49,692 nucleotides of DNA from Acinetobacter phage LAPP1: the sequence record MN923124.1; one strand, written 5' to 3'. Shown one piece after another: positions 3,478-4,785 of this stretch. Under the pieces are notes generated by a model. It saw only the letters and a list, made by a program, of their open reading frames with translations. It was not told the DNA's origin and did no database searches. Within the stretch, counting starts at the first letter, position 1, and every line of letters starts with the position of its first letter. The translations under genes and the position numbers were made by a program.

Positions 3478-3506
3478 AAAGGGGCCAATTGGCCCCTTAG
3501 TTATTT
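3478..3506. terminator. bidirectional rho-independent terminator. Stem GGGGCC, loop AATT, stem GGCCCC, with T-rich tracts on both sides.
   Basis: Perfect 6-bp stem at 3481-3496 between the plus-strand tube gene and the convergent minus-strand island. Confidence 0.75.
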
Positions 3507-3908
3507 CTGGTTGAGCATGGCGGCGCGGCGGTTTACCACCTCGATTAACGCCTCTTCGGCATCACACAGGCAATCAGCGATGCCACGGCGATCGCCGTCG
3601 AAGTTATTCAGGTCGAGGCGTATACGAGCAACCTTCTGCAATGCGTCCAGCACATCATCAGGCACTACCGGCTGCTGCGCGTGGCGATAGAGCTGGGTGC
3701 CAACAGGAAGCGCCCTGTCAATTGTCGACGTGTCATTGCCTGGGCGGTTAGATAAAACTTCGGCCACCGGCTCGCTGTCCATTGCGGCCAGCGCCATGCG
3801 GGCCACTCGCTTGAGAATCTCTATGTCGGCAAACCCAAGCCGATAGCCAGCCTTTAAATCAAATACGGCCTGAACGCTTTCTTCTCTGGTTATGGTTGAT
3901 TTGGTCAT
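3501..3908 (-). CDS. hypothetical protein (135 aa), gene 4 of the minus-strand tail-module island
   Basis: ATG with GGGGAG RBS. ATGA coupling to the upstream gene. Its first 27 nt are identical to the start of the ASCH gene at 31950. Confidence 0.55.
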   Translation of the reverse strand: MTKSTITREESVQAVFDLKAGYRLGFADIEILKRVARMALAAMDSEPVAEVLSNRPGNDTSTIDRALPVGTQLYRHAQQPVVPDDVLDALQKVARIRLDLNNFDGDRRGIADCLCDAEEALIEVVNRRAAMLNQK

Positions 3909-4120
3909 TGGCTGGCTCCCCGTGAAATTTTGTGGCCCGGCGCATAGCAGCGCTGGCGGTCTTTGCTGATGCGCCAGCCAGCTTTGCGCGCCTGCTGAGA
4001 AATGTCGGTCATATTCCGGCCAATAAAATCAGCCTGCCCCTGCGGATAGATTTTCCCTGACTGGCAACCTTCACAGTCGCAATACAGATCGGCGCAAAAT
4101 CCTTCAGTTATTCCCATCAC
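3905..4120 (-). CDS. Cys-rich small protein (71 aa, C-x4-C-x-C-x2-C followed by a basic tail). Possibly a zinc-binding, DNA-binding protein.
   Basis: ATGA overlaps at both ends. Cysteine spacing is CADLYCDCEGC. Confidence 0.5.
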   Translation of the reverse strand: MMGITEGFCADLYCDCEGCQSGKIYPQGQADFIGRNMTDISQQARKAGWRISKDRQRCYAPGHKISRGASQ

Positions 4121-4389
4121 TCATCCTCCACCTTGATGCCAGCGGCGGCGAGCGCAGCATCGACCTCGTCGGCGTAGTAGTAAGTTAATCCGCTCGATGA
4201 TTTAGCCAACCTGAATGACTCCGGCAGCTTCACGGTGACGGCGCTTGACTCGGCCTCCATCGTCGCCAGAAGCATCTCATACGCTTGAAGCGTGTACTCA
4301 CCAGTCATCGATAACTGACCTTGCTCATCTTTTATTTTGCGCAGTCGGTCGATTTGTACAATAAGGTTTTCTTTTGTCACTCTTCTCAT
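4117..4389 (-). CDS. hypothetical protein (90 aa)
   Basis: ATGA overlaps with both flanking genes. Confidence 0.5.
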   Translation of the reverse strand: MRRVTKENLIVQIDRLRKIKDEQGQLSMTGEYTLQAYEMLLATMEAESSAVTVKLPESFRLAKSSSGLTYYYADEVDAALAAAGIKVEDE

Positions 4390-4670
4390 TTTCTTTTGCT
4401 CCGAATGTGAAAGTCTGCTTTATCCATCATATCTTTACGCCAGCAAACTCCGGTACCCATATACGCCGGGTCGTCGCTTTCCGCATAACCAAATTCATTT
4501 TCATGATACGTACAAATCGTGTCGGTCTGCCCGTCATAAATCCGGAAATGCTTACCCTGTGCAGCGTCGGCGCTATTGCAGTAGATTGTTGCCGACAGTG
4601 CCACAGCCATGATGACCGCCAACTGAATTTTAAATTTGCGCCATGCTTTACGGTCTTGTTCACGAATCAT
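4386..4670 (-). CDS. small secreted/periplasmic protein (94 aa) with an N-terminal signal peptide and two Cys
   Basis: Start trimmed from the track's 4733 to the internal ATG at 4670, because 4700-4733 is the promoter. Hydrophobic KFKIQLAVIMAVALSATIYCNSADA followed by a polar domain. Confidence 0.5.
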   Translation of the reverse strand: MIREQDRKAWRKFKIQLAVIMAVALSATIYCNSADAAQGKHFRIYDGQTDTICTYHENEFGYAESDDPAYMGTGVCWRKDMMDKADFHIRSKRK

Positions 4671-4699
4671 TTCTCTACTCTTCTGTGGTTCTGTTGGGT

Positions 4700-4733
4700 T
4701 AACTATAACCCACCTTGACGCCGCCGTCAACAA
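4700..4733 (-). promoter_or_regulatory. early-type promoter for the island operon. -35 is the perfect palindrome TTGACGCCGCCGTCAA (4715-4730), -10 is TATAGT at 17-nt spacing.
   Basis: Same architecture as 12 other sites. Leader ACAGAAGAGTAGAGAAATG follows. Confidence 0.55.
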
Positions 4734-4735
4734 TT

Positions 4736-4785
4736 GATTGATGATTTCGTCAAGTGTACACTGTAACGACTAACAACCGGAGAAA
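4736..4785 (+). promoter_or_regulatory. divergent promoter for the chaperone/tape-measure operon with the palindrome TTGATGATTTCGTCAA
   Basis: Palindrome at 4736-4751. Leader ACAACCGGAGAAATAACAATG. The -10 is weak (TGTAAC). Confidence 0.4.

Follow-up and report, generated by a model that had tools for sequence, protein, structure and literature searches.

Between the tail tube gene and the tail assembly chaperone gene of Acinetobacter phage LAPP1 (sequence record MN923124.1), four co-oriented open reading frames (ORFs), g1 to g4, run contiguously on the minus strand between positions 4733 and 3479 of the 49,692 nucleotides (nt) analysed (the window). We consider it probable that these genes form an early accessory unit, set antisense in the tail module and built as a fixed socket with exchangeable cargo, the cargo here having come from a lambdoid prophage. 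On sequence comparison only the 716 bp from 3530 to 4245 are a recent import, whose two ends fall inside coding sequences and so make chimeras of g2 and g4. What is conserved across the genus, at ~95% nucleotide identity, is the backbone formed by the promoter, the terminator, g1 and codons 1-48 of g2. The features of the locus are as follows (the sheath, tube and chaperone genes take their names from annotated relatives; aa, amino acids).

1911-3044, plus strand: sheath gene
3058-3474, plus strand: tail tube gene, 138 aa
3479-3498, no assigned strand: bidirectional intrinsic-terminator hairpin, AAGGGGCC-AATT-GGCCCCTT, common to the convergent tube gene and the island
3501-3908, minus strand: ORF g4, 135 aa, EaA-like mosaic protein
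3905-4117, minus strand: ORF g3, 70 aa from ATG at 4117 (71 aa from GTG at 4120, 3905-4120)
3530-4245, minus strand: imported segment, 716 bp, derived from a Klebsiella lambdoid phage or prophage (early accessory region)
4117-4389, minus strand: ORF g2, 90 aa, chimera
4386-4670, minus strand: ORF g1, 94 aa, ATG start
4702-4730, minus strand: predicted sigma-70-type island promoter, -35 TTGACG (4730-4725), 17-nt spacer, -10 TATAGT (4707-4702)
4738-4753, no assigned strand: second, imperfect palindrome copy TTGATGATTTCGTCAA, one mismatch to the motif, between the island promoter and the chaperone gene, kept in relatives
4791-5165, plus strand: tail assembly chaperone gene

The imported segment and its junctions

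Blastn comparisons with relatives recovered two stretches as backbone: 3000-3529, which covers the tube gene, the terminator and the 3' end of g4 (its last ~9 codons), and 4246-5400, which takes in the chaperone gene, the promoter, the whole of g1 and codons 1-48 of g2. The stretch between them, 3530-4245, had no counterpart in any Jedunavirus relative. This segment is instead 85-97% identical, piecewise, to Klebsiella phages XY3, Mulock, ST15-VIM1phi2.1 and many others. In these phages an Ea22-like gene, the 70-aa gene and an EaA-like gene follow each other in that order, with the O/P replication genes on one side and NinE/NinG/Q on the other. The segment supplies the Ea22-like C-terminal tail of g2, the whole of g3 and most of g4. 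Its G+C content is 55.9%, compared with 49.0% for the genome and 46.3% for g1, but the flanking tube and sheath genes reach 53%.

Neither junction disturbs the reading frame, and the start, stop and Shine-Dalgarno (SD) signals are preserved, as is the translational coupling. The left junction lies directly after …ATMEAE (~4243-4248), where the donors read …AELESRTVKLP and the window reads …MEAESSAVTVKLP. The right junction (~3529) lies within the codons for (C/R)RAAMLNQK, a motif common to the resident genes and related to the …RRAAML… of the prophage homologues of g4.

The two halves of g2 can be assigned separately. Its first 48 residues (nt 4246-4389), MRRVTKENL...ATMEAE, make up the N-terminal module resident in Jedunavirus, and the N-terminal 47-60 aa share 65-92% identity with the gene in second place in the islands of relatives. 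The other 42 residues, 49-90 (nt 4120-4245; TVKLPESF...AAGIKVEDE), come from a Klebsiella Ead/Ea22-like protein, of which they are the C-terminal tail, and this 3' part has 91% nucleotide identity to the end of Mulock gp54. The XY3 counterpart of this donor passes the Pfam Ead_Ea22 model (score 29.5 against a cut-off of 27), whilst g2, of which just the last 42 aa are Ea22-derived, gave no Pfam match to Ead_Ea22 (PF13935) at E<=1 and no BLASTP similarity to the Stx1 Ea22-like protein (E 1.5).

In g4, an N-terminal module (1-49, ending AAMDSEPVA) is followed by an LYRHAQQPVVP linker and a helical C-terminal module, with the last ~9 codons (RRAAMLNQK, nt 3501-3529) belonging to the Jedunavirus backbone. 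The protein matches the profiles phrog_14306, phrog_60 and phrog_660; a search of PDB sequences returned only designed repeat or coiled-coil artefacts. Its ~2000 homologues, mostly from Klebsiella prophages, have in common the N-terminal module and an LYRHAQ-PVVP linker and carry swappable C-terminal domains (DUF551, DUF3850), the Mulock homologue having a dATP/dGTP pyrophosphohydrolase domain. Neither g2 nor g4 matches DUF551 (PF04448), and the two are not similar to each other. DUF551 is annotated for genes at the same position in relatives, and PF04448 is found on some homologues of the g4 N-terminal module and on the EaA-like gene at g4's position in ST15-VIM1phi2.1.

The third gene, g3, is an intact import that is 93% identical to a cluster of 382 Klebsiella sequences, with homologues in 425 phage records, including Shiga toxin (Stx) phages, Kuttervirus and Klebsiella siphoviruses. 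An Stx1 phage has its homologue in the exo-xis region, with Ead/Ea22-like, DUF551 and ASCH genes as neighbours. Over its full length g3 matches PHROG 926 (E 9.3e-31 over 2-69), a family of unknown function of which we know of no characterised member. It contains C13, C15, C18, C57 and H62 and a conserved basic segment, ARKAGWRISKDRQRCYAPGHKI. In the family alignment at least 90% of members share C13, C15, C18 and H62, and C57 is the majority residue; the conserved positions overall are Y12, C13, D14, C15, C18, G33, A43, G47, W48, I50, A59, P60 and H62. The first-pass annotation had described a Cys-rich C-x4-C-x-C-x2-C product with a basic tail; C13, C15 and C18 bear this out, but the first Cys of the pattern (C8) is not conserved. 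An AlphaFold 2 model (91 sequences) has a predicted local distance difference test score (pLDDT) of 86 and the order beta-alpha-beta-alpha-beta-beta. Searched against BFVD, this model returned only uncharacterised family members, the best zinc-finger match ('CHC2 zinc finger', E 0.31) not being significant, and the g3 profile against PDB sequences gave only designed repeat or coiled-coil artefacts. A likeness of the 'ARKAGWR…C' segment of g3 to the Ada zinc-binding domain was considered but found no tool support and was dropped.

The tube-chaperone slot in relatives

The slot was compared across 26 IMG/VR loci collected through g1 and four RefSeq relatives (32 loci examined, 30 with both anchor genes). 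Anchor identity is 93-100% for the tube and 74-100% for the chaperone, and the distance between them ranges from 395 bp (L023 and L026, which hold the promoter and g1 alone) to 5008 bp (L028). Tube and chaperone are directly adjacent in none of the 30 relatives with both anchors. The first-pass annotation had asked whether the island is present or absent as a cassette. The slot does behave as a cassette site, its content and length varying among relatives, but the promoter and g1 stay even in the smallest slot. Since some relatives carry g1 alone, the cargo is dispensable.

The cargo includes mosaic genes of 88-195 aa, the majority starting MRRVTKENL…ATMEAEP and ending …CRAAMLNQK, several of them annotated DUF551. 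Rha+KilAC antirepressor-like genes (216-249 aa) and a 156-aa 'HslV-family' gene also occur. In L001, L003, L012 and L017 a gene of 156-158 aa follows g1 and is called 'peptidase HslV family' in RefSeq; as it has no Pfam match at E<=0.01, we treat this label as unverified. Five loci (L011, L015, L018, L024 and L028) hold a 482-aa Hef-like homing-endonuclease-like gene (DUF723, REase_MTES_1575). Elsewhere in the window, just after the major capsid gene, a 539-aa DUF723/REase-like, Hef-like gene (45537-47156, plus strand) has the same Pfam domains as this slot gene, which suggests that mobile endonuclease genes move between the capsid-side site and the tube-chaperone slot.

Promoter class and terminator

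A promoter scan of 3000-5400 returned a single site, TTGACG-17-TATAGT at 4730..4702 on the minus strand, with 10/12 matches (consensus level). The -35 hexamer doubles as the first arm of an inverted repeat, TTGACG-GCGG-CGTCAA (4715-4730), with arms of 6+6 bp around a 4-nt centre. The site is kept in 30 relatives, where the arms and the -10 are essentially invariant and the centre is free (GCGG, ACGG, GACT, GCAG, GGTA and others). Because the arms are conserved whilst the centre varies, there is constraint on the arms, as a -35, a protein-binding site or both.

The same design recurs. Allowing <=1 mismatch to TTGACG-n4-CGTCAA, there are 14 occurrences of the TTGACG-n4-CGTCA(A/G) inverted repeat in the window against 0.25 expected: 102-117, 4715-4730, 4738-4753, 9405-9420, 18468-18483, 22412-22427, 24874-24889, 24931-24946, 26942-26957, 28515-28530, 31304-31319, 39582-39597, 41683-41698 and 42837-42852. 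At ten of the 14 a -10-like hexamer (>=4/6; TATAGT, TAGAGT, TAAAGT, TATACT, TACACT and similar) follows 17-18 nt after the TTGACG arm, and similar leaders, …AACAACAGAGAGG…, come after several of the sites. The repeat thus looks like a promoter class, and it may also be the operator of a phage regulator. Promoters of this kind (TTGACG-n4-CGTCAR-7 nt-TAnAGT) stand upstream of the leftward replication/recombination genes, namely the DUF2800/PD-(D/E)XK nuclease gene at 22569-23729 and the genes downstream of it. They also precede three small minus-strand units among the plus-strand head genes: 38723-39531, between the portal and MuF-like genes; 42301-42867, ahead of the DUF2213 gene; and 49111-49689, at the end of the genome. 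A DUF3310 protein is encoded by one of the three. As these units share the promoter class, the tube-chaperone island is not the only antisense island of early type in the late region but one of several.

The first-pass annotation had proposed a perfect palindromic early-type promoter at 4700-4733. The promoter holds, and the label 'early-type' is reasonable because the same design precedes the replication/recombination genes, from which we infer early transcription of the island; the palindrome is not perfect, however, since its centre, GCGG, is not palindromic. The second copy at 4738..4753 could be an operator or part of a rightward promoter, although a search of 4734-4790 for a plus-strand chaperone promoter found no -10 in register with the palindrome class.

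The perfect bidirectional terminator noted earlier at 3481-3496 was confirmed as a slightly longer element. A terminator scan of 3000-5400 gave one terminator-like site, the perfect 20-nt palindrome AAGGGGCCAATTGGCCCCTT at 3479-3498, which folds stably on either strand (-18.5 and -16.7 kcal/mol; z -2.4 and -2.7) and lies inside the conserved backbone, 3000-3529.

The secreted product g1

The first 36 residues of g1 (nt 4563-4670) are a predicted Sec signal peptide, with n-region MIREQDRKAWRKFK, h-region IQLAVIMAVALSATIY and c-region CNSADA, and cleavage before AQG. Read directly from the sequence, RKAWRKFK is followed by the hydrophobic core IQLAVIMAVALSATIY and by A-D-A at -3..-1 before AQG; relatives with a short form have a 12-residue core and A-H-A before AQG. 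Across the alignment all homologues have a basic n-region, a 12-16-residue hydrophobic core, A-x-A before AQG, two invariant mature Cys and a basic tail. The protein would therefore be exported by Sec and cleaved, leaving a mature part of 58 aa with the basic C-terminus FHIRSKRK. The earlier description of a cleavable signal peptide with two Cys agrees with this pattern for the signal peptide, but there are three Cys in the precursor (C31 in the signal peptide; C53 and C76 in the mature part), two of which remain in the mature part. A lipobox, [LVI][ASTVI][GAS]-C, was not found, since the three residues before Cys31 are T-I-Y in the window, and T-I-Y or A-I-Y in every relative.

The full-length profile match of g1 is to PHROG 31975 (phrog_31975; E 8.1e-56 over 1-94), a family of unknown function. 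Its 66 phage records are all Jedunavirus-type, and an exhaustive HMMER search recovered 9 clusters among 1.84 billion representatives; from these searches the family seems almost entirely Jedunavirus-restricted. The gene is under strong purifying selection, the median ratio of nonsynonymous to synonymous substitution rates (dN/dS) being 0.098 over 273 pairs. JD001-type homologues (L033-L035, 186 aa) and two distant relatives (P0248 and P0250) are longer, two-domain secreted proteins of 142-186 aa, and the 94-aa g1 appears to be only their N-terminal domain.

Further downstream in the window, a gene at 6973-8397 (plus strand) encodes a 474-aa tail protein with a C-terminal lytic-transglycosylase-like motif (…AVISAESNFNP…GLIQF); the counterpart in phage MMNM is so annotated and is present in virions. 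It is conceivable that this tail protein is the target of a periplasmic exclusion factor such as g1.

Gene calls, annotation and identity of the phage

The placement of four minus-strand genes between the tube gene and the chaperone, as first annotated, is confirmed by the ORF coordinates and by the annotation of relatives. Of the sizes first given, 94, 90 and 135 aa are correct, whilst the 71 aa of the third product is obtained only from GTG. The ATG (70 aa) is more likely to be the start of g3, because GGAGG lies 7 nt upstream of it, 70-aa homologues start M-x-ITEG and the GenBank annotation gives 70 aa. ATGA overlaps, reported for every junction, are present at g1/g2 and g3/g4 but not at g2/g3, which reads GAGTGATGG: a GTGA overlap if the GTG is used, or TGATG, with a 1-nt overlap, if the ATG is used.

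All four proteins match PHROG families. Together with the low dN/dS of g1 and the 425 phage-record and ~2000 protein homologues of g3 and g4, this makes them real genes rather than chance ORFs. An exact look-up identified them as QIC52745 to QIC52742 (g1 to g4; locus tags AXX01_00009 to AXX01_00006) of Acinetobacter phage LAPP1/JC1, each deposited as 'hypothetical protein', so they are already annotated, though uncharacterised. Searches of Pfam, NCBIfam and PADLOC gave no match at E<=1 for the four proteins, save sub-threshold noise for g4, and Rfam found no RNA family over 3000-5400. To this extent the products do lack recognisable domains; yet to call them wholly unrecognisable is wrong, because the provenance of the imported genes, the exo-xis/nin accessory gene pool, can be recognised by context.

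The flanks are ~95% identical to Klebsiella Jedunavirus phages, including VLCpiM12a, 1611E-K2-1 and BUCT_49532, and phage LAPP1 is a Jedunavirus (a Klebsiella-type myophage). The 'Acinetobacter' host label is doubtful, given a tail-module region (3000-5400) that is ~95% Klebsiella Jedunavirus and DNA that is 85-97% identical to Klebsiella prophages. A 56-aa ORF (5204-5374) lies between the end of the chaperone gene (5165) and the start of the next gene (5352), where small ORFs are annotated inconsistently in relatives; it may represent the frameshifted extension that tail chaperones usually have.

Interpretation and alternatives

In the explanation that we favour, the island would be an early-class unit driven by the host RNA polymerase, with the bidirectional terminator insulating it from the convergent tube gene. 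Promoter, terminator and g1 would make up the socket, together with the first 48 codons of the second gene on one side of the cargo and the last ~9 codons (…RAAMLNQK) of the final gene on the other; the cargo itself would differ from phage to phage. In LAPP1 the interior of a resident mosaic gene was presumably exchanged by double crossover for 716 bp of Klebsiella lambdoid prophage DNA, an event that produced two in-frame chimeras (g2 and g4) and an intact g3, all three of which would be translated by coupling to g1.

As to function, we infer the following roles. After Sec export and cleavage following ADA, g1 would act in the periplasm early in infection, and its likeliest role would be protection of the infected cell at the level of the envelope, by superinfection exclusion or entry interference, in analogy with T4 Sp/Imm, T5 Llp and HK97 gp15. 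The products of g2-g4 would be cytoplasmic host-interaction modules of the exo-xis/nin type, dispensable for virion formation, each perhaps combining an adaptor or oligomerisation module at the N-terminus with a swappable effector domain. Roles in exclusion or anti-defence are conjecture.

Several observations weigh against this explanation. A Jedunavirus, MMNM/MEW1, has no g1, which is therefore not essential to the genus, and where g1 is present here its SD (GAAGAG) is weaker than the GGAGAG of relatives. No similarity of g1 to any known exclusion protein was detectable. The fold of g3 brings no functional lead, the confident model having no PDB match, and the helical model of g4 is of low confidence (pLDDT 64). 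Lastly, g2 and g4 are recent chimeras unique to this record, each a singleton when 15 billion proteins are compared at 90% identity, and recombination could have left them as by-products with no function.

The last point leads to the view that g2-g4 are neutral debris of an illegitimate or short-homology exchange in a lysogen, with only g1, and perhaps g3, active. Besides the singleton status of g2 and g4, it can draw on both import ends lying inside genes, on L023 and L026 carrying g1 alone, and on g2 keeping only 42 aa of its Ea22-like donor, without the coiled coil. However, junctions that are in frame and preserve start, stop, SD and coupling are not what would be expected of random debris, and the breakpoints coincide with peptide motifs common to the donor and recipient pools (MEAE…, RAAML…), which suggests regular, tolerated module exchange. 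On balance, we consider neutral debris unlikely.

The cargo could also be an anti-defence set, taken from prophages of the host population and directed against Klebsiella immune systems, which would make the hotspot an anti-defence island. The early-type promoter, the fast turnover of cargo among close relatives, the fusion elsewhere of g4-related N-terminal modules to dATP/dGTP pyrophosphohydrolase, DUF551 and DUF3850, and the spread of g3 through virulent and temperate phages all fit such a set. Against this, Pfam, NCBIfam and PDB gave no matches, and none of the proteins matched a characterised anti-defence protein, no dedicated anti-defence library having been searched; moreover, the characterised relatives in this gene pool (Ea22 and the exo-xis genes) are tied to the lysis-lysogeny decision rather than to defence (PMC10834534, PMC7093339). 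Overall, we judge an anti-defence set to be rather improbable.

We are similarly doubtful of a bolder proposal, in which the slot is a dedicated module-exchange locus working through its joints, g3 has a Cys3-His metal-binding fold and g1 is a new genus-specific periplasmic exclusion factor. The peptide-coding joints common to Jedunaviruses and Klebsiella lambdoid prophages (…ATMEAEP…, …LYRHAQPAPVV…, …CRAAMLNQK) would then serve as in-frame recombination sites, through which a lytic phage might keep drawing domains for host manipulation or anti-defence from prophages and placing them under an early promoter, and g3 would have a function conserved in Stx phages, Kuttervirus and Klebsiella phages alike.

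A toxin-antitoxin module, a reading raised in the first annotation, or one resembling an abortive-infection system finds no support and is highly improbable: the layout of small, overlapping, co-transcribed genes is all that recalls one, whilst PADLOC, Pfam and NCBIfam gave no match at E<=1, the genus is virulent and so has no lysogen needing protection, and the gene set is pieced together from unrelated parts that do not co-occur elsewhere.

Tail-assembly or virion components are the least credible of all, since the position between tube and chaperone and the conservation of g1 in most of the genus must be set against the opposite strand, the early-type promoter, the secretion signal on g1 and the hypervariable slot content. 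Mass spectrometry of MMNM virions (PMC8269216 Table S4) detected the sheath, the tube and downstream tail proteins (MMNM_10/_11 and _17 onward) but no product of the four genes that fill the slot in MMNM (_12 to _15), nor the chaperone. As the slot genes of MMNM differ from g1-g4 and do not include g1, these data argue only indirectly against a structural role for the contents of the slot.

Relation to known systems

Our preferred reading, a fixed socket with exchangeable prophage cargo, has much in common with the moron concept (Hendrix/Juhala), of which HK97 gp15 and lambda lom/bor, within tail regions, are examples. Like a moron, the island carries a predicted promoter and terminator of its own within a late structural operon, is dispensable and varies among close relatives; its imported part may also deviate in base composition, being richer in G+C than the genome but close to the 53% of the flanking tube and sheath genes. 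It differs in that just 716 bp are inserted, promoter, terminator and g1 being genus backbone; in that the flanking genes are never adjacent in the 30 relatives, so that absence from relatives holds only for the g2-g4 cargo; and in that the import ends inside genes, making chimeras, in a virulent carrier. The first-pass term 'moron operon' is thus apt for an autonomous-looking, tightly packed, accessory and variable unit in the tail module, but not for four genes acquired as one insert.

Early periplasmic or envelope superinfection-exclusion proteins include T4 Sp, T4 Imm, T5 Llp and T1/phi80 Cor, llp and cor being encoded beside or within tail and receptor-binding genes. The small size of g1, its N-terminal export signal, its early-type promoter and its tail-module position (as for llp and cor) are reminiscent of these. 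It has no sequence similarity to any of them, however, and, unlike the Llp and Cor lipoproteins, no lipobox, and its family is essentially Jedunavirus-restricted.

The cargo is closest to the exo-xis/nin genes of lambdoid phages (Ead/Ea22-like PF13935, EaA, DUF551 PF04448): the imported DNA is 85-97% identical, the gene order is kept and the 'portable domain' architecture is the same. These genes are transcribed very early, and the sole known phenotypes of the Ea22-type mosaic 'portable domain' proteins in this pool concern the lysis-lysogeny decision (PMC10834534, PMC7093339, PMC8614690). The differences are that g2 has just the C-terminal 42 aa and fails the Ead_Ea22 model, that g4 has no DUF551, and that here the carrier is a virulent myovirus with the genes placed in its tail module, because of which the pro-lysogenic phenotype of Ea22 cannot apply as such.

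The members of PHROG 926 in Stx phages and Kuttervirus (CBA120/Vi01-like) resemble g3 in length, in C-x-C-x2-C … C-x4-H and in GWRISKDR, and in Stx phages they lie in the exo-xis region beside Ea22-like and DUF551 genes. The CBA120 homologue differs in location: it falls between orf039 and the head-closure gene, in a gap that carries no annotation.

The island is therefore an accessory, moron-like hotspot of a familiar kind, with clear prophage-to-virulent-phage mosaicism and no new mechanism in evidence. Jedunaviruses are used as therapeutic Klebsiella phages. The uptake into the slot of DNA that is 85-97% identical to host prophages means that 'strictly lytic' phages do swap genes with temperate ones, an exchange that bears on safety assessment and on engineering for host range or anti-defence. 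Payload engineering could also make use of the slot, since insertions there occur naturally and are tolerated, and an early promoter and a terminator are already in place.

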